This document shows, piece by piece, positions 1 through 16,049 of a DNA stretch of 55,360 bases. The position numbers were made by a program, and so were the translations under genes. The DNA comes from Syntrophales bacterium (lineage in GTDB: Bacteria; Desulfobacterota; Syntrophia; Syntrophales; JACQWR01). Location: NCBI GenBank assembly GCA_035283845.1, contig DATESZ010000264.1:1-55360 (forward strand), in the 5' to 3' direction. Below the pieces are notes generated by a model, which was not told where the DNA came from, searched no databases, and was given only the letters and a program-made list of their open reading frames with translations. The first letter of the stretch is position 1, and each line of letters begins with the position of its first letter.

Positions 1-141
1 CTATCCGCATACTTCCTCCTCTCCATTCAAAAATTATGCCACGTGCTAGGCAGAATTATCATATCTCAATATCACTAATTATGCCTATTGCGCTGTTGAA
101 CTCCACAAAAGACATGGTTCCTGCTTCATCCGCCGGCATTA
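1..141. repeat. Terminal direct repeat copy 1 (= 55220..55360); assembly overlap of a circular or circularly permuted genome
   Basis: nt 1-141 (ctatccgcatacttcc...catccgccggcatta) recur verbatim as the last 141 nt of the window. Confidence 0.95.
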
Positions 142-300
142 AAACACCACACGTCCGCAGGCTCTTTCCGAGGTTCCCCCGGTGGCTGAAATCAAGTTCT
201 GTTTCTGTAATCCGAATTTAAGGATATTCTGCGCTGCAAGATGGTCTCTGTCATGGGCTGCCCCGCACGTCTCACATGTCCACACGCGGTCAGATAGCGT
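95..300 (-). ncRNA. Candidate TnpB guide RNA (omega/reRNA) scaffold overlapping the tnpB 3' end
   Basis: Inference only. In characterised TnpB elements the RNA overlaps the 3' end of tnpB and stops at the element right end. Here the minus-strand sequence ...GTGGAGTTCAAC ends at nt 95. The 5' limit cannot be set by eye. Confidence 0.3.
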
Positions 301-1302
301 CAGCCGAGCATTCACCTTGCCACAGGTACACATACGGCTTGAAGGCTCAAAACGGCCTATCTCCAGATAGTTCTTGCCACTGTCTGCAAGTTTATACTGG
401 AGCATCCGGTAGAAATCTCCAAGCCCTAAATCAGAAATGCTCTGAGCAAGGCAGTGATTCTTCACCATGCCCTTGATGAAAAGGTCTTCACACACAACCG
501 TATCGAAGCGGTTGACTATCCCGCTTGTCGTCTTGTGTAAGAAATCCTTTCTCTGGTTTGCCACATGTTCATGATACCGCGCAAGTTTCAATACGGCTTT
601 GCGTCTATTGCCACTTCCTTTCACCTTCCGGCTTGCCCTACGCTGTAAAACCTTCAGCCTTCCGAGTGCCTGCTTCAGGTGCTTCGGATTTTCTATCTCC
701 GTTCCATCTGAAAGAACGGCAAACGTCTTGATGCCTGTGTCAATCCCGACCGCCGTTGCCTTGCGGATCGCCTTCTGCTTTGCCTTCTTGTCTTCTGCCT
801 CAACGGCAATACTCACGAAGAACTTGCCTGTTGCCGTCTTCTTAATCACTGCTGTCTTTATTGTTCCCTCGAATGTCCGGCTTATTCGTGTCGGTATCCA
901 TCCGAGCTTAGGAGCAAAGACCCTATTTTCATCAAACTTGACCTTTACATTTTGCGGAAAACCTACAGTATGCCGTTTGTCATGCTTGCGCTTGAACTTT
1001 GGGAATCCGTGCTTTTCCCTAAAGAAACGAGTGAAGGCTTTTTCCATATTCACAATAGACTGTTGGAGGCTCTGAGCAACAGACAGATTCAGCCATTCAT
1101 ATTCAGGTTTCTTCTTTATCTGCGTTAATTCTGCCATCAACGTGAAGGCACTCATGGTTTTTTTATCCTTCTGGTACGCCTCAATCCTTCGGGCAAGAGA
1201 CCAGTTATACACCCATCGGGCATTACCGAGCATCTGTTCAAGCTGCCCTGCCTGATGCTGGTTCGGATAGATTCTGTATTCGTAACCACGTATTTTTACC
1301 AT
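139..1302 (-). CDS. tnpB: TnpB RNA-guided endonuclease (IS605 OrfB family), 387 aa
   Basis: ORF track. RuvC triad motifs VGIDTG, VCEDL and DRDHLAAQNI, with a CxxC...CxxC zinc finger (CTCGK..CETCG) between the last two. Confidence 0.93.
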   Translation of the reverse strand: MVKIRGYEYRIYPNQHQAGQLEQMLGNARWVYNWSLARRIEAYQKDKKTMSAFTLMAELTQIKKKPEYEWLNLSVAQSLQQSIVNMEKAFTRFFREKHGFPKFKRKHDKRHTVGFPQNVKVKFDENRVFAPKLGWIPTRISRTFEGTIKTAVIKKTATGKFFVSIAVEAEDKKAKQKAIRKATAVGIDTGIKTFAVLSDGTEIENPKHLKQALGRLKVLQRRASRKVKGSGNRRKAVLKLARYHEHVANQRKDFLHKTTSGIVNRFDTVVCEDLFIKGMVKNHCLAQSISDLGLGDFYRMLQYKLADSGKNYLEIGRFEPSSRMCTCGKVNARLTLSDRVWTCETCGAAHDRDHLAAQNILKFGLQKQNLISATGGTSERACGRVVF

Positions 1303-1310
1303 GTTTAGAA

Positions 1311-1338
1311 TTTATCATAGTTCTCCAGAGAATGTCAA
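1311..1338 (-). promoter_or_regulatory. Possible sigma70-like promoter in front of tnpB
   Basis: Minus strand TTGACA (1338..1333), 16 nt, GATAAA (1316..1311). The -10 is weak and would give a nearly leaderless tnpB mRNA. Confidence 0.25.
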
Positions 1339-1366
1339 GTCTTTTTAGAAAATAAATAAATATGGG

Positions 1367-1425
1367 GTTCAACAAAGGTTTCGAGCGGACGGGGTGAAGC
1401 TCCGCCGCTCAAACCGGCGTTATCC
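1367..1425 (+). repeat. attC-like folded repeat a (59 nt)
   Basis: GTTCAAC-AAA-GGTTT[C]GAGCGG[A]CGG-ggtgaagct-CCGCCGCTCAAACC-GGC-GTTATCC. The TTA of the right core is the stop of 1420..1599. Confidence 0.75.
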
Positions 1426-1599
1426 TAATATCAACTGCCGATGTTTCCACGCATCGTCGGCAAGCCCTTCGGCGTCCTCTACTGGTAATTTCCGCAACCT
1501 GTCATGTTGTCCGGTCTGACACGCGTCATCATAAATATTCGCCGCATAGGTAGCTAAAAATGTTACCGTAAAGTGTTCTTTAAATTCTTTTTCGTCCAT
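1420..1599 (-). CDS. Hypothetical cassette protein, 59 aa
   Basis: Internal ATG of ORF 1420..1776 preceded by GGGGGGAAG. The longer ORF-track start would read through repeat b. Confidence 0.6.
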   Translation of the reverse strand: MDEKEFKEHFTVTFLATYAANIYDDACQTGQHDRLRKLPVEDAEGLADDAWKHRQLILG

Positions 1600-1618
1600 A
1601 ATCTTCCCCCCATTAAAA

Positions 1619-1705
1619 GGATAACAATTAAATGAAGCGGAGCGGAAAGTCGCTCGTCGCGCCTCATTCTTGGGCTTTGGCCGCCCGCTTATTCCTGCGT
1701 TGTGT
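1619..1705 (+). repeat. attC-like folded repeat b (87 nt)
   Basis: GGATAAC-AATTA-AAT[G]AAGCGG[A]GCGG...CCGCCCGCTTATT-CCTGC-GTTGTGT. About 88% identical to repeat e. Confidence 0.75.
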
Positions 1706-1783
1706 AAAATAAAACCATAAACTGAAAGATGCCCACAAAGTGAAACAAAAAATCCCAGCACCAAGAAAGGCACCATAAAAAAG

Positions 1784-2227
1784 ATGACGGATACGATTGT
1801 TGGAGCACTTATCGGGGTCGGCAGTGCTATTCTCGGCGCGATTGTTGGAGCTTGGATCGGTTATCGACTCTCCATTTCTTTGGTTCATGTCACTACTCGA
1901 CACAATGCTGCGTCCAATTTGAGGAAAGCTTTCTATGACGAACTTGCCATCTTGAATATGAGCAGCCTTAAAGATATTGATGCCTGTTCTATGCTTGAGG
2001 GTGCTTTCAAGAAACATATGATCGCTTTTTGGGAACTCAAATCCACCTTGCCGAAAAGCAAATGCGTTGCTTTCACCCAGGCATGGGAAGAGTATTATTG
2101 TTATCCAGGAACAGGGGACCATCATCTTGAACAATACGACACACTTACTGGAGGCTCGGAACAGCGTAAGGGGAAAAGAACGCTTGCAATTAAACGGATT
2201 GAACATATTCTCTCCTTTACTGAATAA
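1784..2227 (+). CDS. Hypothetical membrane-anchored protein, 147 aa; the only plus-strand gene in the array
   Basis: ORF track. N-terminal hydrophobic helix (IVGALIGVGSAILGAIVGAWIG). More protein-like than the antisense ORF 1664..2245. No clear SD. Confidence 0.5.
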   Translation: MTDTIVGALIGVGSAILGAIVGAWIGYRLSISLVHVTTRHNAASNLRKAFYDELAILNMSSLKDIDACSMLEGAFKKHMIAFWELKSTLPKSKCVAFTQAWEEYYCYPGTGDHHLEQYDTLTGGSEQRKGKRTLAIKRIEHILSFTE

Positions 2228-2239
2228 ATGAAAAAGACC

Positions 2240-2298
2240 ACACAACCAAGCACTACAGCGGACAGGCTGATCGCCTGCCGCTGACCTTTGCGTTATGT
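2240..2298 (+). repeat. attC-like folded repeat c (59 nt)
   Basis: ACACAAC-CAAGC-ACT[A]CAGCGG[A]CAGGC-tgatc-GCCTGCCGCTGACC-TTTGC-GTTATGT. The right core holds the stop of 2293..2496. Confidence 0.8.
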
Positions 2299-2496
2299 TT
2301 CAAAATCCTTCAAAGTCATATGTCCCTGGCATACAAAAACAATGACAGAGAAGAAACAACATTCCCAATACGTGGGTTGGAGTATGGCAAAACGAGCGGG
2401 TACGTTCCATAAATAGTAATAACCAAACCACAATAATCCGCCCGTGGCTGCCCACCAGAAAATACAGTACAAAGCAAATGCAAAATATTTTAACAT
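2293..2496 (-). CDS. Hypothetical small membrane protein, 67 aa
   Basis: ORF track. Two hydrophobic segments rich in W/Y/F. The start codon is the CAT of the left core of repeat d. Confidence 0.5.
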   Translation of the reverse strand: MLKYFAFALYCIFWWAATGGLLWFGYYYLWNVPARFAILQPTYWECCFFSVIVFVCQGHMTLKDFET

Positions 2497-2580
2497 AACA
2501 AGCTCACTGAACCCGACCGGAATTACGTCCGGTGCGTTTCAGCCAAATCCGTGGCCAGCGGGTTATCTCTGGCGTTATCT
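2493..2580 (+). repeat. attC-like folded repeat d (88 nt)
   Basis: ACATAAC...AACCCG-ACCGGaattacgtCCGGT...CGGGTT-ATCTCTGGC-GTTATCT. The central ~60 nt are identical to repeat g. Confidence 0.7.
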
Positions 2581-2581
2581 A

Positions 2582-2788
2582 TCACTCAAGTACCCGATAG
2601 TTTTTAAGTGGAATCCATCGGCCCTTGTCCTCGATCATACACCCACCGAAAAAAGTCCATTCATGTTGTTTCCCTATACGGCTTGCCTGGCCATCGCATT
2701 CCATTTTTCCCGCGATAGGGATTAGTGCAAGAATTGCAAGAATTGCGACCGCTATGACCACTTCGATAATTGTAAATCCTTTCATCAT
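2582..2788 (-). CDS. Prepilin-type N-terminal domain protein (pilin/pseudopilin-like), 68 aa
   Basis: MMKGFTIIEVVIAVAILAILA matches the G-F-T-L-I-E prepilin cleavage/methylation motif plus a hydrophobic helix. AAGGAG SD lies before the ATG at 2788. Confidence 0.7.
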   Translation of the reverse strand: MMKGFTIIEVVIAVAILAILALIPIAGKMECDGQASRIGKQHEWTFFGGCMIEDKGRWIPLKNYRVLE

Positions 2789-2809
2789 CCGTCTCCTTTT
2801 AAATTTAAA

Positions 2810-3283
<474 letters not shown>

Positions 3284-3302
3284 CTAACTCCTTAAAATAA
3301 AA

Positions 3303-3362
3303 GCATAACAATTAGTTGCAGCGGACAGGCTAATCGCCGCGCCGCTGACCTTTGCGTTAGCT
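3303..3362 (+). repeat. attC-like folded repeat f (60 nt)
   Basis: GCATAAC-AATTA-GTT[G]CAGCGG[A]CAGGC...CCGCTGACC-TTTGC-GTTAGCT. The right core holds the stop of 3357..3545. Confidence 0.8.
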
Positions 3363-3545
3363 TCCGTAGCATCTTTTCCTTGGCCCTTTGCATCCCATAC
3401 ACGGGTTCTCTCCCTTATTTACAAGTCCCATCACAATCATTCCACCCAATAAACACGTTTTGGGAACGTACCCTTGTCCGATTGCCATTTGCAGATTAAT
3501 ATCGTCGCTGTCTGCTTCTATTTGACTAAAATAATGTGGTTTCAT
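3357..3545 (-). CDS. Hypothetical cassette protein, 62 aa
   Basis: Internal ATG of ORF 3357..3575 preceded by AGGAGAG. Confidence 0.55.
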   Translation of the reverse strand: MKPHYFSQIEADSDDINLQMAIGQGYVPKTCLLGGMIVMGLVNKGENPCMGCKGPRKRCYGS

Positions 3546-3566
3546 TCGATCTCTCCTTTCAAAAAT

Positions 3567-3649
3567 AAAGAACAATTCAACCCCGACCGGAATTACGTCC
3601 GGTGCGTTTCAGCCAAATCCGTGGCCAGCGGGTTATCTCTGCGTTATAT
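3567..3649 (+). repeat. attC-like folded repeat g (83 nt)
   Basis: AAAGAAC-AATTC-AAC[C]CCG-ACCGGaattacgtCCGGT...CGGGTT-ATCTCTGC-GTTATAT. Confidence 0.75.
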
Positions 3650-3654
3650 CCCGA

Positions 3655-3873
3655 TCATTTAAAGTACCGCAAGAAGCAATCGTAGCAGCATTCCTTGTCT
3701 TCATAAATACCATCAAGGCCAAGAATTACATGTTTACCGCACTTGAAGCACTTCCCCGTTAGTGGCAACGGTTCCGTCCCGACATTTGAGAACATTGCAT
3801 TAAAGTGGTCGGATATTCTTAACCTTTCTGCCTTTCCTACTTCCGACTCTTCCCATTGTCCTTGTGTTGGCAT
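3655..3873 (-). CDS. Hypothetical zinc-ribbon protein, 72 aa
   Basis: ORF track. CFKCGKH...CCYDCF cysteine pairs. AGGAGG SD. Confidence 0.6.
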   Translation of the reverse strand: MPTQGQWEESEVGKAERLRISDHFNAMFSNVGTEPLPLTGKCFKCGKHVILGLDGIYEDKECCYDCFLRYFK

Positions 3874-3896
3874 ATTGAATTCCTCCTAAAATACTG

Positions 3897-3982
3897 ATTT
3901 AACCAGTCACTACAGCGAACGGGGATCACACGCTGCGGCTTCCATCATGCCCGTGGCCCCGCCGCTGACCTTAGCGTTAGCA
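3897..3982 (+). repeat. attC-like folded repeat h (86 nt)
   Basis: ATTTAAC-CAGTC-ACT[A]CAGCGa[A]CGGGG...CCCCGCCGCTGACC-TTAGC-GTTAGCA. The left core fits RYYYAAC exactly. The right core holds the stop of 3977..4219. Confidence 0.8.
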
Positions 3983-4219
3983 TTTAGGACATGAAACTCG
4001 TTTGTTGTACGTTTGCCAGCCCATAAATGTCTTGATGCTTTGCCAAGGGTGATGTTCTAATTTCTTAATAAGTTCCACATTACATCTTTGGCATTTAGTA
4101 TGAAAATTAAGGCCATCATAAAAACATTCACCAACAATATGACCAAGGGAAAAACATAAAAGAATGCTAACAATTTTATCCAGCGGACGGGTAATTTCGT
4201 CCTGTGGTTTTTCATTCAT
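3977..4219 (-). CDS. Hypothetical Cys-rich protein, 80 aa, with a repeat-encoded N-terminal leader
   Basis: ORF track. The only start codon and SD (GGAGG) lie inside repeat i. The first 17 codons (MNEKPQDEITRPLDKIV) are shared with 10081..10608. Confidence 0.5.
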   Translation of the reverse strand: MNEKPQDEITRPLDKIVSILLCFSLGHIVGECFYDGLNFHTKCQRCNVELIKKLEHHPWQSIKTFMGWQTYNKRVSCPKC

Positions 4220-4254
4220 GTTCTACCTCCCCGCCGATGATAACGGCGTTATAT
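4165..4254 (+). repeat. attC-like folded repeat i (90 nt)
   Basis: TGCTAAC-AATTT-TAT[C]CAGCGG[A]CGGG...CCCGCCGATGATA-ACGGC-GTTATAT. nt 4168..4224 are identical to 10557..10613 in repeat o. Confidence 0.75.
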
Positions 4255-4497
4255 TCTGATACACCTTACTGCCGTCTCCTGCCCCAACGGGAACTCAAAG
4301 CACGATGACCACTTAGTGCAGCATCTCCTCGTATGCGGAACTGAATGTAGACATGTGTATCCCGCCATTTTGAAACATTTGTCAGCGTTGATACACCTTA
4401 CATCGGGCTTTAGTTTAAACCTCCTCCCTTTTTTTATTACAACGGCTTCCCCGATTTCTCCTTTTTCACCCGCAACATAATTCCTGATATTCCCCAT
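4249..4497 (-). CDS. Hypothetical cassette protein, 82 aa
   Basis: Internal ATG of ORF 4249..4557 preceded by GGAGGGG. The stop lies in the right core of repeat i. Confidence 0.5.
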   Translation of the reverse strand: MGNIRNYVAGEKGEIGEAVVIKKGRRFKLKPDVRCINADKCFKMAGYTCLHSVPHTRRCCTKWSSCFEFPLGQETAVRCIRI

Positions 4498-4513
4498 AAC
4501 CCCTCCAAAAACC

Positions 4514-4599
4514 AGATGACAATTAAATGAAGGCGACGGGAAGTTACTCCGTCGCATTCAGACACGCTCACCGTCCCGCGCCTTATTACTGCGTTAGCA
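4514..4599 (+). repeat. attC-like folded repeat j (86 nt)
   Basis: AGATGAC-AATTA-AAT[G]AAGGCG[A]CGGGA...TCCCGCGCCTTATT-ACTGC-GTTAGCA. Same plan as b and e, with compensatory changes. Confidence 0.75.
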
Positions 4600-4953
4600 T
4601 CACCACTTGATTAATAAACCCCAAAATTCCGACTCGTGCGTCTTTTCAAACCACACTCCCATATTTGCAAAACAAGAAAACCCATCTGCGTGGGCCAGCG
4701 TTTCTTGTTCTTCTGCCGTGAGCCATCTTCCTGCCAGGCATACGCCTCTCCAGTTAAGCGTGATCTCCTGCACTGATTTACAAACGCACTCTCCGATTTT
4801 ACGACACGCCTTCGTTCTGAGGCCGGTATAGAGGTAGAGTTTATCCCCCGGTTTTGGGTTCCTCCCGTCCCGCCGTTTCGCCCGGATCGTTTGTGTTTTT
4901 AACCCGGCTTCAACCAATGGCGCAAATTGCTTTTTAAATCCTAATAATGGCAT
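4600..4953 (-). CDS. ASCH-domain-like protein, 117 aa
   Basis: ORF track. N-terminal GFKKQFAPLVEAGLKTQTIR...PGDKLYLY resembles the ASCH beta-barrel signature (from memory). G-rich SD. Confidence 0.55.
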   Translation of the reverse strand: MPLLGFKKQFAPLVEAGLKTQTIRAKRRDGRNPKPGDKLYLYTGLRTKACRKIGECVCKSVQEITLNWRGVCLAGRWLTAEEQETLAHADGFSCFANMGVWFEKTHESEFWGLLIKW

Positions 4954-4983
4954 CTCTCCCCCCTATGCAAAAGATAATAAAAA

Positions 4984-5046
4984 TGCTAACAAATCGCTCC
5001 AGCGGAGTGCCAAAGGACCGGCACCCGCTGACCTTTGGCGTTATGA
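4984..5046 (+). repeat. attC-like folded repeat k (63 nt)
   Basis: TGCTAAC-AAATC-GCT[C]CAGCGG[A]GTGCC-aaaggacc-GGCACCCGCTGACC-TTTGGC-GTTATGA. The right core holds the stop of 5041..5208. Confidence 0.8.
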
Positions 5047-5208
5047 TTCATCATCTAATGGACAATCCCCCGGCATACAACAGGCATGCTGCCTCTGTAT
5101 ATCCCCTCTCACCAAGAGCAAGCTGCATTCCCCATCAAGATTCTGCCGGGAGGGAAGAAAACAAGGGCACATGCCGCAACTTGTTATTTTATCAGGCAAC
5201 TTTTTCAT
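5041..5208 (-). CDS. Hypothetical Cys-rich miniprotein, 55 aa (below ORF-track cutoff)
   Basis: Hand translation: MKKLPDKITSCGMCPCFLPSRQNLDGECSLLLVRGDIQRQHACCMPGDCPLDDES. GGAGGAG SD 3 nt before the ATG at 5208. Confidence 0.45.
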   Translation of the reverse strand: MKKLPDKITSCGMCPCFLPSRQNLDGECSLLLVRGDIQRQHACCMPGDCPLDDES

Positions 5209-5227
5209 AACTCCTCCATAAATAAAG

Positions 5228-5287
5228 ACATAACAATGAAATCAAGGCGACGGATTTTACTCCGCCTGCTCTTTCGCTGATTCCTGA
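5228..5287 (+). repeat. Degenerate attC-like repeat l (left half only)
   Basis: ACATAAC-AATGA-AATCAAGGCGACGGA...CGCTGATT. No GTTA right core before the exonuclease gene. Confidence 0.4.
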
Positions 5288-5309
5288 TACAGGTGGCTAT
5301 AAAACGCTC

Positions 5310-5939
5310 TCAGGAAGTCATCATTTTTTCGTAAATTGCCATTGTCGTTTTGATGTCTCTCAAACAGTGGTTATCTATCGCCTCGTAGTCCCCCATTAAC
5401 CAGAGTTGGTAAATCTCCGATCCATTGCCGCCGCCGTGCTGAACGCCCAAGAAATCAGCACACGAGGCCAAAGAAACATAGTCTTTAAAATCTGCCGCCC
5501 AGACCTTCATCAAGTCCGTCGTTAGATGCGGGTTGCCCCTCGGTATGGCGTTCCTTATTCCCGTGAGGCCATATTTTATGGCTTTTCTCCATATCCACGG
5601 CATGTCAAACGTGATGATATTCCATCCCACCAAGTGCAGCGGTTCATGCCATGCGCCTGCTATTTTATCAAAAGCCCCGGCTAAAAGCTCCATCGTTTCC
5701 CGTTCGTTTGCCCCTCGGATGATTTGGGCTTCCCCGCCTTCAAGGCAGAGGCCAACACAGAAGATTTCCCCCTTCATGCTGTTAAGGCTCTGCTTTTGGT
5801 ATTCATTCTCGACATTGGCTTCTTGATATGCCCTGATGGTTTCCGGCTTGGACATTGTGCCGGGAGCTTTTATATCTTCAGGGAGTGGCCTGGTCGGGCC
5901 GGGGGTAGATTCTATGTCCAGGAATAATTTTGGTATCAT
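5310..5939 (-). CDS. DnaQ-like 3'-5' exonuclease (PolB-exonuclease-related family), 209 aa
   Basis: ORF track. LFLDIESTP Exo I motif. Start overlaps the ERF stop (ATGA). Confidence 0.7.
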   Translation of the reverse strand: MIPKLFLDIESTPGPTRPLPEDIKAPGTMSKPETIRAYQEANVENEYQKQSLNSMKGEIFCVGLCLEGGEAQIIRGANERETMELLAGAFDKIAGAWHEPLHLVGWNIITFDMPWIWRKAIKYGLTGIRNAIPRGNPHLTTDLMKVWAADFKDYVSLASCADFLGVQHGGGNGSEIYQLWLMGDYEAIDNHCLRDIKTTMAIYEKMMTS

Positions 5940-6676
5940 GGTTGACCTCCGATATTATCCGGGACATCCTGCGGTTCTACGATGGTGATCGACACAAGAT
6001 TGTTTCCGTATTGACCTTTGACAAACGCGACCTTGACGGGAACGATATTTGCCGCCGCGCCGGATGCAATGAGGCTTAGGTCTTTCTTGAAAGTCTGATA
6101 AATATTCCCGTCTTCGTCTGTTATCCCGTACTTGACATACGGTTTACCCTTGTTCGCTCCGGCGGTTGACACCCCCGGCTTTTCCTCTACTGACTTGATG
6201 TAAACGGTTTTGGTTTCCTCGTTTCCGGCAAGGGCTGTTTTTTCGGCAGGCGGCTTTGTCGTTTTATTGTCGCCCACTCCTGCGCTCGCCGCGTTTCCGT
6301 CATCATCCTCCGGTGCTATTCCCACAATGGATTGTAGAGAATAACGCCGCAGGTAGGTTATGCAGCTTCCGATGGCCTGCGGGTCGCTTTTAACCGGCCT
6401 TGCCACAAGCCGCCCTCGCATCCACTCGCCGGAAGAATGGCAAAGCGTAGTATCTATGCAGACCATCTCCGGGTGTTCTGGTAGGAAATCTGCCGTTTGC
6501 ACAACGCTTAGTCCGTTGTTGGCAAGCGGCTTCCGGCACGCATCCCATACAGACGCAAGGTCGGCGTAGGAGCTTTTAAAGAAGGGGTTTTGGCTATCCT
6601 TTACGGCCCCCTCCATTATCCCCTGTGCTTTCGCCAGGGCGTCTGCTAATTTCCCTATTGTCTCTGATTGGCTCAT
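5936..6676 (-). CDS. ERF-family single-strand annealing recombinase, 246 aa
   Basis: Internal ATG with AAGGAG SD. IGKLADALAKAQ...NPFFKSSYADLASVWDACR is the remembered ERF N-terminal signature. Confidence 0.8.
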   Translation of the reverse strand: MSQSETIGKLADALAKAQGIMEGAVKDSQNPFFKSSYADLASVWDACRKPLANNGLSVVQTADFLPEHPEMVCIDTTLCHSSGEWMRGRLVARPVKSDPQAIGSCITYLRRYSLQSIVGIAPEDDDGNAASAGVGDNKTTKPPAEKTALAGNEETKTVYIKSVEEKPGVSTAGANKGKPYVKYGITDEDGNIYQTFKKDLSLIASGAAANIVPVKVAFVKGQYGNNLVSITIVEPQDVPDNIGGQP

Positions 6677-6713
6677 CGAAAAAACTCCTTGCTGATTTTG
6701 TAGGCACCTTCTT

Positions 6714-7040
6714 TCATAATTTATTCCCCGCAAAGGCATTTAGTATTGATCTCATCGGTTCTGTCACATGGGCGTTTAATTTTCCCGGCTCCTCTCCCGC
6801 TTCCCACGGCTCGGAAGTGAGGCACATGAAGTTTACCCCGGCCGCTAAGATTTCGTACCGCGTGGGCCACGCCTCATCGTGGAAGGTTTTTCTGCAATCT
6901 CCCCGAGAAAACAGGCGGAACAATGCCTCGCTATCTAGGTGGATACTGAAGCTGCTCACCCCAATACACCCCTCGGCGTGCAGCTCCGCATATTTTTTCG
7001 TTAACTCCAATGCCTTCGATATAAACTCTTGTTTTCCCAT
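6714..7040 (-). CDS. Hypothetical protein, 108 aa
   Basis: ORF track. Contains the 34-nt segment (6789..6822, LTSEPWEAGEE) duplicated at 9757..9790. Confidence 0.6.
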   Translation of the reverse strand: MGKQEFISKALELTKKYAELHAEGCIGVSSFSIHLDSEALFRLFSRGDCRKTFHDEAWPTRYEILAAGVNFMCLTSEPWEAGEEPGKLNAHVTEPMRSILNAFAGNKL

Positions 7041-7060
7041 TTTCCGCCTCCCTCGTTAAA

Positions 7061-7748
7061 TTATTCCCCCGCCTTTGAGTAGTCGCTCAACAACAAGCTC
7101 GGCTGGAATGGCTTGCTCAGATGGGCGCCCTTTTTTAAATTATCTATTGCCCACAGTGGTTGTAAATTCTTTAGCGCCCACGCCCGCCTGAAATCTAAGT
7201 CATCCGGTGTCTCGAAGTTGAAGGCAGACAGCGGGATCTTATGATCAATATGCCATTCTCCCCTGTTTTCCCAAGTCATACCCGGCTTGAACTTCTTTGC
7301 CAGGTGCTTCATTAATTGATCTAAGGTAAAATCCACTAGCGACTCCCAGCGCCGACCGTTTTTGCTCCCGTCAAGCGATTCCCAGATAGAGCGGCGCATC
7401 CCTTCGTTAAGACTCCCTTTCGGGGTTGGCATTGGCCCATGCTTGGCAGCGTCCCCTGTGCGCTTCGGGGTTACGACTGTAGTATTCTTTGTGTCTTGCC
7501 AGGGTAATGTCGCGATTTTGCGTATAATATTTTTTGCGATGCCGACTCGCGGCGGCCGCGTGGTTTTTCCAGTAAACCCTTGACCAGATATTTATGCAAT
7601 CCTTGCATCTATTGCCGCTCCATGAGTAAAAATCACAGATTTTCTTTGTCCCTTTGCATTTTGAGCATCTTTTTTCTATCCCAATAGAAGGACTTGCATT
7701 TAGGACACCTTCGCACGTCTGAGCTTCTAGCAACCCACTCATGATCAC
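7061..7748 (-). pseudogene. HNH endonuclease split by a frameshift (ORFs 7407..7748 and 7061..7432)
   Basis: The N-terminal Cys-rich, Y/N-repeat part and the C-terminal WHIDHKIP...NLQPLWAIDNLKKG HNH part lie in different frames and overlap by 26 nt. In related phage HNH genes (from memory) these form one protein. Confidence 0.65.
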
Positions 7749-7816
7749 ACCTCTTGCATATGATTTTGGTAATTTTGATTTTCATGGGTTATATGTATGC
7801 TCCATAAGTAAGATTG

Positions 7817-8101
7817 TCAAGAGTTATTATAGTCGCATCCGTGAGCGGCGATCCCCTTTTCCTTCCGCCCCATCACCATGCAGTCTTCGGGGTGATATTC
7901 TGAGCGTTCCAGCTCGGCGCTCTGGCTGTCCAGTTTAAGCTCTTGCGAGTGGAAGAAATCGCCCGCAAAAACGATCAGATCAACGGCTTCCGCCTCTGCC
8001 GTTTCAACGATAAAGTTCAGGCACTTTTCGCATTCCTTAATATCTTTGTCCCGTAGGTGGGCGTCGGCAAAATGGAGTAGCTTCATGATATTATTACCCA
8101 C
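7817..8101 (-). pseudogene. Truncated calcineurin-like/SbcD-type metallophosphoesterase fused to a duplicated 25-aa tail
   Basis: MKLLHFADAHL and GDFFH motifs only. Homology ends after ~60 aa and continues into ERSEYHPEDCMVMGRKEKGIAAHGC, which is shared with 10081..10608. Confidence 0.55.
7835..7910. repeat. 76-bp dispersed direct repeat, copy 1 (copy 2 at 10105..10180)
   Basis: gcatccgtgagcggcgatcccc...ggggtgatattc[t/g]gagcgttcc, 75/76 identical. Confidence 0.9.
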
Positions 8102-8340
8102 CCTTCCTTTAACCCGTAAACAGGGCCTCTAAGAATGTAGTTTATGGGCATGTGCCAGATGTACCCCGTATATTCAAGAGGGGCTCCGGCTTTCATTTCC
8201 TCGCCGCTATATTTCGTCTCTTCGAGCTGTAGGTCATCCCCCACCTTAAAGCCTCTATCATCAAAGCGTATTTCAAACCGCTTGCCCATATCTGCCGTTG
8301 CCCGGAAGGCTTCTGTATCTGTCTTTAATATGTGTTTCAT
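8083..8340 (-). CDS. DUF3850/ASCH-like protein, 85 aa
   Basis: MKHILKTDTEAFRA...KRFEIRFDDRGFKVGD...YILRG...GLKEGWVIIS matches the remembered DUF3850 pattern. GGAGGTG SD. Confidence 0.7.
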   Translation of the reverse strand: MKHILKTDTEAFRATADMGKRFEIRFDDRGFKVGDDLQLEETKYSGEEMKAGAPLEYTGYIWHMPINYILRGPVYGLKEGWVIIS

Positions 8341-8344
8341 GGCT

Positions 8345-8932
8345 TCACCTCCACCCTTCTGCTCGGTTTCCAGGGATAAAAAATAACTCCCAAAAGGCCG
8401 TAAGTCTGATCTTCTCGTAATCGGCCCTGGCGGGCTTCTCGATCTTCTCGTAATCGGCCCTGGCAGGATTCTCGATCTTCTCGTAATCGGCCCTGGCAGG
8501 ATTCCTGATCTTCTCGTAATCGGCCCTGGCAGGATTCTCGATCTTCTCGTAATCGGCCCTGGCAGGATTCTCGATCTTCTCGTAATCGGCCCAGGCGGAC
8601 TTCCTGATCTTCTCGTAATCGGCCAAGGCGGAGGGAGATAAAAGCCCAAGCGGAATCCCCATCAGATAAAACTTTCCTGTCTTTATCGCCTCGGCAATCA
8701 CCACGGGAAATTTGCTAGGGGAAGAAAAATCTGTGCACTCTTTTTTCACCCCCTTGCCGTCCAACTCATAAAAGAAATCAATCGCTCCGTGTCCGACAAA
8801 ATCATCGGGCGTGGTGTGCTGCTGTAATTTTTTCCCTCGTTTAGAATTATAAATATCGTCATAGGTGAGGAAAAGGATTTCTGTGGCGCCGTCTGTTCGT
8901 CGCACCTCTTTCCAGCTGATAAATACGCACAT
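8345..8932 (-). CDS. Hypothetical protein with C-terminal ADYEKIENPAR tandem repeats, 195 aa
   Basis: ORF track. GGAGGG SD. About seven 11-aa repeats. Confidence 0.6.
   Translation of the reverse strand: MCVFISWKEVRRTDGATEILFLTYDDIYNSKRGKKLQQHTTPDDFVGHGAIDFFYELDGKGVKKECTDFSSPSKFPVVIAEAIKTGKFYLMGIPLGLLSPSALADYEKIRKSAWADYEKIENPARADYEKIENPARADYEKIRNPARADYEKIENPARADYEKIEKPARADYEKIRLTAFWELFFIPGNRAEGWR
8408..8630. repeat. 33-bp tandem repeat, ~6.7 copies
   Basis: Unit gatcttctcgtaatcggccctggcaggattctc starts at 8408, 8441, 8474, 8507, 8540, 8573 and 8606. Confidence 0.9.
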
Positions 8933-8935
8933 GGC

Positions 8936-9271
8936 TCATCCCTCCATAGCAAAAGGGACGTCCTGCCCGCCCGCAATGTCCTGGACGCGGAAAGGCTCCC
9001 CGGTTGATGTCCTAATCATCCCCTCAACGCTTGCCATCATGCGGCCGGATACGTTAGGGTCGCGCACAATCTGAGCGGGAAGCCAGTCCACCTTTGCCGC
9101 CTGAGCAAGCCGGTCGAGCCCTTGCTTGTGGATTCTTACCGGCTCCACGATCAGGGCGAACCCCGGCGCGATATCCGCGGGGCTGGTTCCCGTGGGGATG
9201 AGCATATGGCAGCCCTTGGACTCAAACTCCTTTAACCTCTGGTACGCTGTTTTCTGTGATTGATCTGTCAT
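8936..9271 (-). CDS. Hypothetical protein, 111 aa
   Basis: ORF track. GGGAGG SD. Confidence 0.65.
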   Translation of the reverse strand: MTDQSQKTAYQRLKEFESKGCHMLIPTGTSPADIAPGFALIVEPVRIHKQGLDRLAQAAKVDWLPAQIVRDPNVSGRMMASVEGMIRTSTGEPFRVQDIAGGQDVPFAMEG

Positions 9272-9273
9272 GA

Positions 9274-9426
9274 TAATAACCTCCCACCGGTTAGGTTGGG
9301 GAAGGCCCCGCTGCCTGCCCTAGAGCAGACAACGGGTGGGGATGGCCTTCCGTATTAGTCTTTGCGATCTCCCATTAACCGCGCTGGTCTTATGTAATGC
9401 CGCGTGCGGCATATCTCTCGTTATCT
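9274..9426 (+). repeat. Long composite attC-like repeat m (~153 nt)
   Basis: TAATAAC...CGGTTA/TAACCG, GGAAGGCC/GGCCTTCC and ATGCCGC/GCGGCAT stems...ATCTCTC-GTTATCT. The right core holds the stop of 9421..9573. Confidence 0.5.
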
Positions 9427-9573
9427 ACCATTACAAACGGATTCTTTCTGGGGACGTATTTTTAGAAGACGATCCACTGCTTCTGGTGTTAGGTACACTT
9501 CCTCCCCACTACAATCATAACATCCATCGAACTCGATATGTAAGTCTCCGTCTAAATCCCATTCTATTTTCAT
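9421..9573 (-). CDS. Hypothetical cassette protein, 50 aa
   Basis: Internal ATG of ORF 9421..9621 with GAGGA 8 nt upstream. Confidence 0.45.
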   Translation of the reverse strand: MKIEWDLDGDLHIEFDGCYDCSGEEVYLTPEAVDRLLKIRPQKESVCNGR

Positions 9574-9603
9574 GTTCTCATCCTCAAATCTCCTAAAATA
9601 ACA

Positions 9604-9669
9604 AGATAACAAAGCGCTCAAGACGGACGTGGCATACAGCCGCCACGCCGCTTAGATTGAGCGTTCCCT
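9604..9669 (+). repeat. attC-like folded repeat n (66 nt)
   Basis: AGATAAC-AAAGC-GCTCAAgaCGG[A]CGTGGC-atacagcc-GCCACGCCGcttagaTTGAGC-GTTCCCT. Confidence 0.65.
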
Positions 9670-9744
9670 ACCACCAATAACCAAATGCTCCGTTATTCCT
9701 ATATGCAACTTCGCGCCCTCCGCCGTTTCATGCGCTCTTCTAAA

Positions 9745-9921
9745 CTAAACATGGGTCTCCTCTCCCGCTTCCCACGGCTCGGAAGTGAGGAACGCCCGGA
9801 CGCCATCGATAAGCTCGTCCAAGTTGTTCGTGCTGATAACATTGGTATGGCCCGAATAGGCGTTGTACCTGCCGAAATTGTTATCCCGGCCCCCGTCGCT
9901 TATGGTTAGATTTTTAGTCAT
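9745..9921 (-). CDS. Hypothetical protein, 58 aa
   Basis: Internal ATG overlapping the stop of 9914..10081 (ATGACTAA). The C-terminus carries the duplicated LTSEPWEAGEE segment. Confidence 0.5.
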   Translation of the reverse strand: MTKNLTISDGGRDNNFGRYNAYSGHTNVISTNNLDELIDGVRAFLTSEPWEAGEETHV

Positions 9922-10081
9922 GGGTTTTCCCCAGCTTTTTAGTGGGCAACCTGCCCTTTCCGTCAATCTTACATTTGGGACATTTGCGCCGCCGTATTGC
10001 ATGCATGAGCGGATACTCTTCGCGACAAGCATAATTTCGGCACCGTACCCACTTTATATCAAAACAAGACACATACCACAT
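9914..10081 (-). CDS. Hypothetical zinc-ribbon protein, 55 aa
   Basis: Internal ATG overlapping the stop of 10081..10608 (TAATG). CRNYAC...CPKC. Confidence 0.5.
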   Translation of the reverse strand: MWYVSCFDIKWVRCRNYACREEYPLMHAIRRRKCPKCKIDGKGRLPTKKLGKTHD

Positions 10082-10608
10082 TATTCCCCTACCTCCTTGT
10101 ACTGGCATCCGTGAGCGGCGATCCCCTTTTCCTTCCGCCCCATCACCATGCAGTCTTCGGGGTGATATTCGGAGCGTTCCGGTTCGTAGTCATTCGCCCA
10201 CTTAAACGGTATTTCGTGTAGCTCTTTACCGCAATAACAGCAGAACCCCATGCCATTTTCAGAGGGTGTCCCCTCGATTATGCAATGGAGTTGACCGCAT
10301 TCTGTTGACCAGCTCCCCTCTTCGTCCGCTGTCCAGGAGCACCCCTGCCCCGGCCTATTTTCACCCATTTTAACCAGAGGTTCCTCTGTGTACTCTTTTT
10401 TTACGTAAAGCATGCCTGTCTTGTGATCTTCAATACACCAAGACTTTTTTGCTATATGCTTAGCTATTATCATTAAGGTTCTGATGTTATTGCTCACCCC
10501 CTGCCAGTGCCAATAAACAGAGTATGGCCCCTTGGTACGAAGCGAATAACGGGGCATAACAATTTTATCCAGCGGACGGGTAATTTCGTCCTGTGGTTTT
10601 TCATTCAT
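10081..10608 (-). CDS. Hypothetical protein, 175 aa, with a repeat-encoded leader and the duplicated C-terminal tail
   Basis: The ATG at 10608 with GGAAGGAAG SD lies inside repeat o. An alternative ATG lies in the GTTATG core (MPRYSL...). Confidence 0.55.
   Translation of the reverse strand: MNEKPQDEITRPLDKIVMPRYSLRTKGPYSVYWHWQGVSNNIRTLMIIAKHIAKKSWCIEDHKTGMLYVKKEYTEEPLVKMGENRPGQGCSWTADEEGSWSTECGQLHCIIEGTPSENGMGFCCYCGKELHEIPFKWANDYEPERSEYHPEDCMVMGRKEKGIAAHGCQYKEVGE
10105..10180. repeat. 76-bp dispersed direct repeat, copy 2
   Basis: 75/76 identical to 7835..7910. Confidence 0.9.
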
Positions 10609-10643
10609 GTTCTTCCTTCCCGCCGCTGACCTTTGCGTTATAT
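10554..10643 (+). repeat. attC-like folded repeat o (90 nt)
   Basis: GCATAAC-AATTT-TAT[C]CAGCGG[A]CGGG...CCCGCCGCTGACC-TTTGC-GTTATAT. Confidence 0.8.
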
Positions 10644-10858
10644 TACTGATGACCATCTAAACCTTCGTTCCAAGTATTAACCCCAGGATTTTCTACATCT
10701 CCGTTATTTCTTATATCGGCAAATGACCAATCTTCATCCCCGTCGACGTGTAGGGAAAAAGAAATTTCACCGTCTTTTGGTAATTCAGGATGATTGGTTT
10801 CCCGAAGTATTTTTTGGACTGCATCAGCTATTTCTCGTTTTTGTCTTACTGAAAACAT
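10643..10858 (-). CDS. Hypothetical acidic protein, 71 aa
   Basis: ORF track. GGGAGGTG SD. Confidence 0.65.
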   Translation of the reverse strand: MFSVRQKREIADAVQKILRETNHPELPKDGEISFSLHVDGDEDWSFADIRNNGDVENPGVNTWNEGLDGHQ

Positions 10859-10879
10859 GCGCCACCTCCCTTATAAAAA

Positions 10880-10942
10880 ATATAACCAGTCACTAAAGCG
10901 GCGTGAGGCTGTTTGCCACGCCGCTTACCTTGGGCGTTATGT
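10880..10942 (+). repeat. attC-like folded repeat p (63 nt)
   Basis: ATATAAC-CAGTC-ACT[A]AAGCGGCGTG-aggctgtttgc-CACGCCGCTTACC-TTGGGC-GTTATGT. Confidence 0.8.
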
Positions 10943-10953
10943 GACAAAATCCC

Positions 10954-11112
10954 TCACTCATATTCAGTGCAATCATGGTTCTCGTGTTTCGCGCAATATT
11001 CACAAAAACCTTCGCGCCCGCAAATATCGCAAGTGCTTGTGTCATCCGAGCCATCAGGGTTTTTTATCTGCTCGCAACATACATGACAAAAACCTCTATC
11101 TTCGTCTCTCAT
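10954..11112 (-). CDS. Hypothetical Cys-rich miniprotein, 52 aa
   Basis: Internal ATG of ORF 10954..11136 with GAGGGA SD. CHVCC...CDICG...CEYC. Confidence 0.5.
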   Translation of the reverse strand: MRDEDRGFCHVCCEQIKNPDGSDDTSTCDICGREGFCEYCAKHENHDCTEYE

Positions 11113-11132
11113 ATTTCCCTCTATAAATAAAA

Positions 11133-11221
11133 GCATAACCAGTCACTGAACCCGCCCGGGGAATTCCGGTCTGGGTTTTCCGTCAAGGCTTAGGCCCCGG
11201 CGGGTTATCTCTACGTTATAT
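11133..11221 (+). repeat. attC-like folded repeat q (89 nt)
   Basis: GCATAAC-CAGTC-ACTG-AACCCGCC[C]GGGG...CCCCGGCGGGTT-ATCTCTAC-GTTATAT. Confidence 0.75.
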
Positions 11222-11458
11222 TTAAAATTCATCAACCAGTTCATCAAATGGGCGTCCCGTGCGTATTGCTTCGGCGGATAGGTGGAGAAAAACGCGTGGG
11301 CTAAATTTACGAACCTTTTCATATCTTTCATTGCCCTTACGGATATCGTGCAGAACCATATAATCTAACGCCTTCAGGTGGTCAGCGTGGAGGACAACCG
11401 CATCGTCACGGTGTAGTTCCCATGCCTCGTATGTTTTAGCATTATATGGGTTACTCAT
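11222..11458 (-). CDS. Hypothetical protein, 78 aa
   Basis: ORF track. GGAGGA SD. Preferred over the overlapping ORF 11143..11331. Confidence 0.65.
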   Translation of the reverse strand: MSNPYNAKTYEAWELHRDDAVVLHADHLKALDYMVLHDIRKGNERYEKVRKFSPRVFLHLSAEAIRTGRPFDELVDEF

Positions 11459-11534
11459 TCCAGTCCTCCATTAAAAGAATAAGATCATCTTTTGTATATG
11501 GTTGTTTTTTACTTGGTTTTCTCCAAAAAACAGA

Positions 11535-11583
11535 AAACAACTTAATCCAGCCCGTGGCCCGGCGGGTTATCCTTGCGCTATAC
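11535..11583 (+). repeat. Short attC-like repeat r (49 nt)
   Basis: AAACAAC-TTAAT-CC-AGCCCG-tggcccgg-CGGGTT-ATCCTTGC-GCTATAC. The GCTA variant of the right core supplies the TAG stop of 11578..11763. Confidence 0.5.
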
Positions 11584-11763
11584 AGCACAAAATAAAATAC
11601 AATCCTTAGCGTCGGATTGGCTAATCTCTATCAATCCATACGATCCATCACCCTCGTCAAGCCACCCTTCACCTGAGCAAATAAAAATCCTCTGATCGCG
11701 GGTTTTAACGGCCTCATATTCCGTTCGATGTTTACAATCGCTGCATTTTGGTGTGGTTTTCAT
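11578..11763 (-). CDS. Hypothetical Cys-containing protein, 61 aa
   Basis: Internal ATG overlapping the stop of 11760..11918 (ATGA). Confidence 0.55.
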   Translation of the reverse strand: MKTTPKCSDCKHRTEYEAVKTRDQRIFICSGEGWLDEGDGSYGLIEISQSDAKDCILFCAV

Positions 11764-11918
11764 TTTCTCGTCCCCGGCATCTTGATCCAAACGATCTCTT
11801 CAAGGCAGTCGCAGCTCCCCTGCTGCCAGCGCCACAACGGCACGAGGAAGCCTGGCGTGTGCATCAGCGGTAATGTCTCTTTTTTCCTGCCTACCCACTC
11901 GATAAATTGTTTCAACAT
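11760..11918 (-). CDS. Hypothetical protein, 52 aa (first gene of the early-left operon)
   Basis: Internal ATG of ORF 11760..12098 with AGGGGGG SD. The upstream part of that ORF reads through repeat-like leader sequence. Confidence 0.45.
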   Translation of the reverse strand: MLKQFIEWVGRKKETLPLMHTPGFLVPLWRWQQGSCDCLEEIVWIKMPGTRK

Positions 11919-12065
11919 TTTGACCCCCCTAATTGCTTTTTGCCCACCTACCGCGTCCCGAAGGCACATTGCCCAGGTGAGCTCATCTGCCGACTGCTCG
12001 GCTACCCTTCCGTTTCCCGTAGGATCGGTTGGGCGGGTGTTACTTTTGTCTCTTTTGTGACTGCT

Positions 12066-12090
12066 CCGCCAGCTTATCCGCACGTTATAC
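12066..12090 (+). repeat. Right-half attC-like sequence s in the early-left leader
   Basis: CCGCCAGCTT-ATCCGCAC-GTTATAC resembles the right arms of d, g and q. No convincing left arm found. Confidence 0.3.
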
Positions 12091-12106
12091 TTTTTCATTC
12101 GTCCGC

Positions 12107-12135
12107 ATCATACACCCGTCAAATGTGTTTGTCAA
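12107..12135 (-). promoter_or_regulatory. Early-left promoter (PL-like)
   Basis: Minus strand TTGACA (12135..12130), 17 nt, TATGAT (12112..12107). Confidence 0.6.
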
Positions 12136-12177
12136 GCATTATTTTCATTTTATTATTGCTAATCGTAAAAATAATAA

Positions 12178-12205
12178 TTGACATATATATTGACTTGTGT
12201 ATAAT
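12178..12205 (+). promoter_or_regulatory. Early-right promoter (PR-like)
   Basis: TTGACA (12178..12183), 16 nt, TATAAT (12200..12205), 30 nt upstream of the HTH gene. Confidence 0.65.
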
Positions 12206-12235
12206 GGGCATAACTGGAAGAAAGGAGGAGTGAAT

Positions 12236-12442
12236 ATGGGTAATGCTTTTGAGGGGTTTACCACAGTTCAGAAGGTTAAGGCATTCATGGCTGCAAACGA
12301 CATGAATATGCAAGCGTTAGCTGATTATCTAAAAATTTCCATTGGAACGGTAAGCAACAGATTTGAGAAAAACGACTGGACGGTACCTGAGCTTAAATTG
12401 TTGGCCGAAAGGTTCGGGACTACAATAGTAGACCTTATTTAA
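12236..12442 (+). CDS. Cro/CI-type helix-turn-helix regulator, 68 aa
   Basis: ATG with AAGGAGG SD. MQALADYLKISIGTVSNRF is a typical HTH. Confidence 0.75.
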   Translation: MGNAFEGFTTVQKVKAFMAANDMNMQALADYLKISIGTVSNRFEKNDWTVPELKLLAERFGTTIVDLI

Positions 12443-12454
12443 TCGGGTGGCGTT

Positions 12455-12802
12455 ATGCGAAAAGAAGTACGCGAACGCATCCTATTAAAATGCAAAGGGA
12501 AGTGCGTCGAATGCGGTGCTGTTGAACACCCTGAAGTAGATCATATCATCCCATTAGCCCGAGGCGGAAGGCATGATGAAGATAACTTCCAAATCCTCTG
12601 CAAAAAATGCAATCTCAAAAAGGGAAAAGGGATAGATTATTCTAAGTATGTTAAAATGGGTAAATCTCCAGAATACATAGAGGTTAACCAATCAATACTT
12701 GAAACTGATTTTTTCCGCCGAGGTTCTAAATTTGTAGCGATGCAATTAGAGTCGTGGCACAGACAAAACAATGCTCTTTTTGAGGTTAATAATGGCGGTT
12801 GA
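12455..12802 (+). CDS. HNH endonuclease, 115 aa
   Basis: ORF track. CVECG...EVDHIIPLARGG...NFQILCKKCNLKKG. Confidence 0.85.
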   Translation: MRKEVRERILLKCKGKCVECGAVEHPEVDHIIPLARGGRHDEDNFQILCKKCNLKKGKGIDYSKYVKMGKSPEYIEVNQSILETDFFRRGSKFVAMQLESWHRQNNALFEVNNGG

Positions 12803-14064: not shown

Positions 14065-14127
14065 AGCTGCGATGCTTTTTGCCGGAGAGGGATCGGTGTT
14101 ATCAATACTAGAAAAGGAAGGCACTAA

Positions 14128-14364
14128 ATGTCAGTAGAACGTAGAATCCGTTGGCGGTTTGAAGGCGAATCCCCGTCATCAGTCATCAAAGGTTTTATTA
14201 AATTTGGGTATGGGAAACTTGCCACAGCCCAGATAATGGGAATCAACCCCCGTACACTAGGCAAACTCACAAGTAGGTATGGCCTACAGTTCAGGCCCTA
14301 TATTGAATTAAATTCATCATGTAAGGCACCTGGTCGGAAACCAAGAGAAAGGGGCCAGCAATGA
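14128..14364 (+). CDS. Hypothetical protein, 78 aa
   Basis: ORF track. GGAAGG SD. Confidence 0.6.
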   Translation: MSVERRIRWRFEGESPSSVIKGFIKFGYGKLATAQIMGINPRTLGKLTSRYGLQFRPYIELNSSCKAPGRKPRERGQQ

Positions 14365-15061: not shown

Positions 15062-15089
15062 ATAGAGAGAGAGACAGGAGGAAATACGA

Positions 15090-15293: not shown

Positions 15294-15312
15294 ACTTTGG
15301 AGACGTGAAATT

Positions 15313-15989: not shown

Positions 15990-16049
15990 GGAGGAATTGT
16001 AAATGGATGATTTATTTATAAAAACGGCTGGAACGAATGGGGTTGTCTG

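Follow-up and report, generated by a model that had tools for sequence, protein, structure and literature searches.

Cas12 nucleases descend from TnpB, whose biology has so far been linked to the transposases of IS200/IS605 and IS607 insertion sequences (ISs). The mobilising partners known for it are Y1 and serine transposases. In the IS605 family, the role of TnpB is to cut the empty site, which keeps or copies the element. We analysed a tnpB gene close to one end of contig DATESZ010000264.1, a stretch of 55,360 nt (the window) that holds a tailed phage genome. The gene lies in a sharply bounded unit on the minus strand. This unit is probably a self-contained mobile cassette of the integron type, carrying tnpB together with its guide RNA, and not a stranded IS.

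Integron cassettes and the clusters of attC sites lacking an integrase (CALINs) of phages have been described (Qi et al. 2023, PMC9892861). TnpB is mentioned nowhere in the text of that paper, and full-text literature searches returned no paper on TnpB as a cassette. The only paper found to join the terms deals with ISHahl1, an IS200/605 element beside a CALIN, which has tnpA and hairpins at both ends (PMC7923331). According to the same paper, elements that use single-stranded hairpins cluster together.

The TnpB protein of the window matched three Pfam domains (HTH_OrfB_IS605, OrfB_IS605 and Cas12f1-like_TNB, with 63, 104 and 58 bits, respectively) and the NCBIfam model guided_TnpB (323 bits, with a cut-off of 100). 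Residues 1–367 matched the structures of ISDra2 TnpB (8bf8, 8exa and 8h1j; E 9e-71). The motifs GIDTG, CEDL and HDRDHLAAQNI and the zinc finger (CxCG...CxxCG) line up with the ISDra2-like solved nuclease 9yyg. An intact TnpB nuclease without a Y1 transposase on board had been proposed from the letters of the DNA alone (the original prediction). Both parts were confirmed: domains, D-E-D motifs, zinc finger and similarity to ISDra2 all agree, and Y1_Tnp (PF01797) had no match on the whole phage contig. The six matches in the metagenome bin to which the contig belongs were all on other contigs. The unit thus resembles ISDra2 and the IS1341-type elements in protein family, length, catalytic triad and zinc finger and differs from them in having no Y1 TnpA in the element or in the phage.

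Close relatives of the unit (L008, L009, L010, L015, L175 and L178–L184) were found in IMG/VR contigs and metagenomes, with 84–95% identity at the DNA level and 86–95% at the protein level. The copies occupy at least 10 unrelated places in unrelated phages and are never accompanied by tnpA. Six viral contigs with close copies, of which one has terminal repeats and one is rated complete, carry no homologue of the terminase of this phage, and their flanks share nothing with it, even as protein. Hence, the unit has moved between unrelated phages. No Y1 transposase gene was found on these six contigs.

Among the TnpB copies in phages, dS was 0.76–0.96 and dN/dS was 0.058–0.073, and every catalytic motif was retained. 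tnpB is therefore neither decaying nor freshly stranded. This contradicts the recently stranded IS that the original prediction had offered as one of two explanations. The other was a domesticated nuclease; a gene fixed in the phage does not agree with the occurrence of the same unit in so many unrelated places.

Several relatives, L182 and L183 among them, came from 0.1-µm groundwater filtrates. One further copy, L033, with an 86%-identical TnpB, belongs to a Zambryskiibacteriota metagenome-assembled genome (JANLIM010000019.1); its contig is 2.6 kb long, and the bin, from the candidate phyla radiation, comprises ~0.6 Mb. In L015/L199 (IMGVR_UViG_3300031707_004158), only TnpB residues 204–386 are present, and the right end and the 3' flank are the same as in the full L008 copy. 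This copy illustrates a cassette truncated on the 5' side that retains the guide-RNA end.

Both boundaries of the unit were sharp in at least 10 relatives. DNA homology covered positions 95 to ~1416 in L009 and reached up to nt 95 in L008, L010 and L015. In every close relative, it ended right after GGAGTTCAAC, at nt 95 of the window, and beyond this point the flanks varied by locus. The right end at nt 95 and the adjoining 20-nt guide AGCGCAATAGGCATAATTAG, as proposed originally, are thus correct. By analogy with the known biology of TnpB, these 20 nt would be transcribed as the guide. The exact 20-nt guide was absent from IMG/VR. With up to three mismatches allowed, its 16-nt core had no more matches elsewhere in the bin than a reversed control. 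An anti-host use of the guide, which had also been suggested, is therefore unlikely, and we dropped it.

The guide-RNA scaffold was assessed in an alignment of the last ~135 nt of the unit from 12 relatives (alignment A1). It contained 25 pairs in five helices; 13 of the 25 pairs had compensatory changes, and 99% of the cells were paired. This was not reached by any of 500 shuffles, and slid partner columns gave only 37–50% pairing. Judged by this covariation, the scaffold is real and structured, as had been expected for the 3' end of tnpB. A search with Rfam found no guide-RNA family on positions 1..1500 or in the whole window; the sole match was a group I intron elsewhere. The arrangement is that of ISDra2 and the IS1341-type elements: the gene runs at its 3' end into the scaffold, which stops at the right end, the putative guide is the adjoining flank and a short motif lies 5' of the left end.

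This motif was compared in 14 independent copies, where the 5' flank read TAAC (10), TAAT (3) or TAAA (1). At position -4, the 14 flanks all have T and the 12 right ends examined all have C; the unit's own end always reads CAA. For this reason, the transposon-adjacent motif (TAM) is likely to be TAAC and not TTGAAC, as assumed before. At 96..101, TTGAAC results from reading the terminal box of the element itself on the complementary strand, and the 5' flank reads TAAC. The likely TAM also differs from the TTGAT of ISDra2. The short conserved motif 5' of the left end, together with at least 10 different 3' flanks, is what is looked for in IS200/IS605 elements as well.

The 5' end of the unit is formed by an attC-like hairpin site. 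It reads GGATAAC GCCGGTTT GAGCGGCGGAGC TTCAC CCCGTCCGCTC GAAACCTTT GTTGAAC, and its hairpin at 1383..1412 falls inside the homology shared with L009. A naive scan for AAC...GTT hairpins was too noisy outside the early region of the phage, and a covariance model (R1), built from four sites of the window and five TnpB 5' sites, was used in its place. R1 identified 14 sites in the window, ten of which were not in the seed, and the site of the tnpB unit was the best match. All were on the minus strand and confined to 1367–5046 or 9608–11221, where they box small genes of the phage early region. Inverse core boxes (RYYYAAC...GTTRRRY) around an imperfect and variable hairpin are present at 1367–1425 and at the 13 other sites, and the stems covary. 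The 14 co-oriented sites are accompanied by no integron integrase on the phage contig (TIGR02249 search), as is the case in a CALIN.

The sites were also found with R1 around the relatives. A site lies directly 5' of tnpB in L175, L179, L183, L184 and L186, none of them in the seed, and further sites occur near tnpB in L175, L178, L010 and L183. In L175, L179 and L010, the next site opens exactly with the TnpB end heptamer. Across 853 kb around 164 more distant TnpB genes, there was one weak match, and the association is hence specific to this TnpB clade. The 5' hairpin is common to the window copy (W) and L033, to L010 and L183 and to L008 and L178, but the DNA before the hairpin differs within each pair. 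This means that the hairpin travels with tnpB. The 5' site of L033 has lost the second hairpin arm. In L175, the TnpB right end is immediately followed by a GAGCGGCGG...CCGTCCGCTC-type site (2852–2913), whose first box is the TnpB end heptamer; this copy would therefore have an arm of the neighbouring hairpin as its guide. The only sizeable R1 match in the bin outside the phage contig was at C156:1024–1086 (42.7 bits).

The two ends of the unit pair with each other. GTTCAAC and GTTGAAC pair 7/7 in W, L008, L175, L178 and L179. Moreover, pairing across 1.3 kb is kept by compensatory changes in L184 (GTCCAAC/GTTGGAC) and L186 (GCCCAA/TTGGGC). The same applies to the array, where the closing heptamer of one site and the opening heptamer of the next are exact reverse complements in 9 of 14 successive pairs, taking the better of two box registrations per pair (each registration alone scores 7/14 at 7/7). 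In a permutation test of one of these registrations, the match observed was reached by 0 of 20,000 permutations. The matches include odd pairs such as GTTGTGT/ACACAAC and GTTATCC/GGATAAC, and the two boxes of one integrated site match at AAC/GTT only. By this rule, every unit of hairpin, gene and end box would be a circularisable cassette, with the tnpB unit among them.

The site reconstituted at the circular junction folded with -19.9 kcal/mol (z -5.75) and the integrated hybrid with -13.7 kcal/mol (z -2.85). In the fold, two unpaired bases are on the 3' arm (tnpB-sense strand), and these may correspond to the extrahelical bases that set the polarity of attC sites. The boundaries of the unit are at the 5' AA^C box (^ marks the boundary), which is the position expected of the canonical bottom strand. 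tnpB and the other cassette genes are on the bottom-reading strand with the hairpin upstream of the gene, which is not the canonical order of a top-strand open reading frame (ORF) upstream of attC. In the plus-strand direction, G^TTGAAC is followed by the cargo, attC and G^TTATCC; in terms of sequence, this order is that of a textbook cassette, apart from the reversed cargo. Nothing at the right end corresponds to the left hairpin (GAGCGGCGGAGC...CCCCGTCCGCTC), and left hairpins vary among copies whose tnpB genes are 85–95% identical. By their sequence features, the ends of the unit are attC-like cassette ends and not IS200/IS605 ends, which had been overlooked in the original prediction.

The tnpB unit is the terminal cassette of the array and adjoins non-cassette DNA. 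In a canonical integron, this terminal position is taken by the newest cassette. The preceding cassette consists of the site at 1619–1705 and a 59-aa gene, and its end box GGATAAC holds the stop codon of that gene. On the other side, the DNA beyond nt 95 is not a hairpin site (fold z about -0.8) and has promoter-like hexamers, and two further small genes begin there. An exact overlap of 141 bp (1–141 = 55220–55360) gives a genome unit of 55,219 bp; the window is therefore circular or circularly assembled, and features near nt 1 run on at 55219. The placement of tnpB at the distal end of the early operon thus needs to be divided: it is the last cassette, but it is not the last gene of the operon, since two more genes on the same strand follow over the circular junction. 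The first of them encodes a 31-aa hydrophobic peptide (or an overlapping 65-aa call) and the second a 58-aa protein. Both have a strong ribosome-binding site and are convergent with the lysis module.

We propose the following mechanism. In the circular form of the unit, the end box GTTCAAC would pair with the hairpin-closing GTTGAAC to give one complete attC-like site, and the circle junction would read ...GGAGTTCAA^CGCCGGTTTGAGCGG. A site-specific recombinase acting in trans would excise the cassette and insert it at AA^C of such boxes. Its candidates are the two integron integrases of the bin, presumably those of the host, and the 214-aa tyrosine recombinase of the phage. An internal promoter would drive tnpB, and the scaffold, extended by 16–20 nt of flank (AGCGCAATAGGCATAA...), would provide the guide. 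The promoter-like site of the unit is also kept in L009.

By analogy with the IS605 family, the expected role of the phage TnpB is empty-site cutting. The TnpB complex would cut TAAC plus flank, which is the junction in a phage without the cassette or after its excision; this empty junction would read GGATAAC^AGCGCAATAGG. At the occupied site, the end of the cassette itself reads CAAC, which would protect this site from cutting. An occupied copy would serve as the template for recombinational repair, by which the cassette would be restored or spread, with the Erf-like and exonuclease-like proteins of the phage as candidates for the repair of the cut. TnpB would then be a drive or addiction function of the cassette. 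A homing-type role, which had been among the original suggestions, is still the best functional guess.

The phage and the bin contain several enzymes that may be connected with this mobility. The window is one whole contig of a 3.2-Mb metagenome bin. Two full integron integrases were identified in the bin (C174:2256–3200 and C41:901–1854), with 431 and 415 bits in TIGR02249 (cut-off 265), and fragments of such integrases were found on contigs C158 and C82. The cut-off was passed by 0 of 14 control genomes. The 214-aa tyrosine recombinase of the phage is a candidate for the cassette recombinase or for a minimal integrase.

The features of the unit and of the phage are listed below.

Coordinates of the tnpB unit, the array sites and further phage genes in the window
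Feature	Position (nt)	Strand	Observation
Whole mobile unit, ~1.32 kb: hairpin site, promoter, tnpB, guide-RNA scaffold, terminal heptamer	95..1419	-	
Putative guide AGCGCAATAGGCATAATTAG, flank just beyond the unit	75..94	-	Complement of 75..94; homology boundary at nt 95
Guide-RNA (omega-RNA) scaffold, overlapping the 3' end of tnpB and ending with GGAGTTCAAC	95..229	-	
Terminal heptamer GTTCAAC, last scaffold bases and cassette end box	95..101	-	
tnpB, 387 aa, intact RuvC triad and zinc finger	139..1302	-	
Promoter-like site in the unit, TTGACA-18 nt-TG-TAAATT	1309..1338	-	10 of 12 consensus positions plus TG extension
attC-like hairpin site, 5' end of the unit, 59 nt	1367..1425	-	Best match of model R1, 71.6 bits
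Closing heptamer GTTGAAC of the hairpin site	1367..1373	-	Exact reverse complement of the unit's last heptamer
First heptamer GGATAAC of the hairpin site, belonging to the preceding cassette and holding its stop TAA and the likely TAM TAAC	1419..1425	-	
Other array sites	1619-1705, 2240-2298, 2493-2580, 2810-2896, 3303-3362, 3897-3982, 4166-4254	-	Model R1
Further array sites	4514-4599, 4985-5046, 9608-9665, 10554-10643, 10880-10942, 11133-11221	-	Model R1
3'-5' exonuclease-like protein	5310..5939	-	PHROGs match, E 6.4e-11
Erf-like single-strand annealing protein	5936..6739	-	PHROGs match, E 1.6e-41
Small tyrosine recombinase, 214 aa, between early region and terminase	19544..20188	+	PF00589, 58.7 bits (cut-off 27.1)
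Two small genes past the tnpB unit, over the circular junction	55134..10 and 54921..55097	-	Same strand as tnpB

The genome is that of a tailed phage: it encodes the large terminase subunit, a portal/adaptor protein, the major head protein and tail proteins, besides the Erf-like annealing protein and the exonuclease-like protein. A group I intron at 28722–29617 on the plus strand (Rfam RF00028, 53.3 bits) is located just before or within the gene of the major head protein (ORF 28749–30446, with a PHROG match on residues 303–561). An HNH endonuclease ORF is located at 28917–29537 on the opposite strand (PF13392, 48.9 bits). Together, the intron and its HNH ORF make up a further homing-type element of this phage, in addition to the tnpB unit.

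A megablast search of positions 1..3000 against GenBank phages gave no match. The search for sister phages by means of the neighbour proteins found only distant relatives (L113 and methylase homologues), so that no IS-free allele was available for comparison.

The alternative that deserves most attention is an ordinary TnpB-only IS200/IS605 element of the IS1341 type, which would be moved by Y1 TnpA supplied in trans from host copies and would insert 3' of TAAC. Landings in the TAAC boxes of hairpin sites would then be frequent because these boxes are abundant and single-stranded. This was our first reading, and it was down-weighted after the end-box, array and covariation tests; we now consider it unlikely. 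TnpB and its guide RNA do descend from IS1341-type elements, the 4-nt motif is present 5' of the left end in 14 of 14 copies, and Y1_Tnp genes occur in the bin. A hairpin partner on the 3' side is lacking in about half of the insertions, a pattern that fits Y1 targeting too, and the alternative was retained for this reason. What argues against it is the nature of the ends. The Methanosarcina elements, which are 47% identical, are TnpB-only ISs of 1400 bp (two copies are 99% identical) with the arm CCCCTTCCTC at both ends and a right end reading ...AGTTCAC. Unlike in these relatives, the left and right ends of the phage unit share no hairpin. The left hairpins vary among near-identical tnpB genes and belong to a family that boxes unrelated genes. 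The last heptamer shows compensatory pairing with one 1.3 kb away, and other cassettes obey the same rule; to our knowledge, IS200/IS605 transposition does not need pairing of the last heptamer with a distant heptamer. The lack of a Y1 gene on the six viral contigs with close copies also speaks against an ordinary IS.

Two immobile states were considered as well. A domesticated phage nuclease with a fixed guide, directed against the host, a defence island or competing phages, would agree with the strong purifying selection, the intact catalytic motifs and the single stable site in all assemblies of the phage. We regard it as very improbable. Its guide would be whatever flanks the unit, which is different in every phage, and the guide core matches the bin no better than the reversed control. 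The unit has sharp ends in at least 10 unrelated places, and the stability of the site is uninformative because the assemblies represent one identical population. Similarly remote is an immobile relic, i.e. a cassette or IS that was fixed by loss of its partner site and kept by chance or for its promoter. The 3' flank in the phage has no recognisable site, and re-excision may therefore be inefficient. A relic does not account for a dN/dS of ~0.06 or for a scaffold that is conserved with covariation across copies.

A number of observations weigh against the integron-type cassette that we favour. Compared with canonical integron cassettes, the genes are on the other strand. The DNA 3' of the right end is a promoter or gene start without a hairpin site in W, L008, L009, L181 and L182. 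These five copies are inserted at a plain ...TAAC, which fits an attI-like or secondary site and the 4-nt targeting of Y1 equally. Loss or gain of the cassette was not visible, as every assembly of the phage was identical here (100% over 7.1 kb in look-ups with the exact TnpB and both neighbour proteins, which retrieved this 55-kb phage and no other). JGI metagenome contigs did not contain the empty-site pattern (5' flank, 0–12 nt, 3' flank). The six Y1_Tnp matches are in the same bin as the phage contig, and there are nine in the Zambryskiibacteriota bin that holds L033. The assignment of a phage contig to a bin is no proof of its host. Elsewhere in the bin, R1 had three weak matches only, and we therefore claim no link between the phage sites and the integrons of the bin. 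All recombinases named as movers are candidates. Finally, the end ...AGTTCAAC is similar to the ancestral IS end ...AGTTCAC, and part of the end box may thus be inherited and not adapted.

With an integron-type cassette as the preferred reading, the unit can be placed among the known systems. Like integron cassettes and CALINs, it has inverse core boxes (....AAC and GTT....), a hairpin conserved in structure and not in sequence and boundaries at AA^C, and the first cassette bases are complementary to its own far box; the unpaired bases on one arm may be a further similarity. It is part of an array of single-gene units without an integrase beside it, as in CALINs. Differences are the reversed strand of the genes, each with its hairpin upstream, the enzymes, for which there are only candidates here, and the cargo, which is an RNA-guided nuclease with its guide RNA. 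Compared with ISDra2 and the IS1341-type elements, the left end is a variable attC-like hairpin and not a copy of a right-end hairpin, and the right end pairs with the box beside the left hairpin.

Selfish elements associated with attC arrays are also represented by the IS1111-attC group, the group IIC-attC introns and ISHahl1. Unlike the phage unit, which has cassette ends and one attC-like site, those insert in or beside attC with their own enzymes and ends. Toxin–antitoxin cassettes stabilise chromosomal integron arrays, and the logic proposed here is similar: a cassette whose loss is punished. The difference is that loss would be punished here by RNA-guided cutting of the vacated junction.

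A more far-reaching hypothesis can be formulated, and we hold it to be evenly balanced between right and wrong. In this hypothesis, a TnpB/omega-RNA clade would have swapped its IS200/IS605 ends for cassette ends, and a tyrosine recombinase acting on folded attC-like sites would be a third mobilising partner of TnpB. One heptamer would serve as scaffold end, core box and TAAC/CAAC switch (T or C at position -4), and TnpB would be the gene drive or addiction module of a cassette located where phage arrays receive their insertions.

The probable occurrence of tnpB as a cassette suggests a way for TnpB nucleases to move on which the literature searches returned no paper. If this is true, a guide-RNA end used at the same time as an attC-type core box would connect two systems, both of which use folded single-stranded DNA, and integron-like cassettes would gain a built-in homing or retention device. 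It would help to explain the spread of stand-alone TnpB genes among unrelated phages without a transposase. It also predicts a TAAC TAM with CAAC being immune, and recombinase-dependent circles with a GTTCAAC...GTTGAAC site. Moreover, the nuclease of the unit is compact and similar to ISDra2 TnpB, and its TAM is likely to be new.

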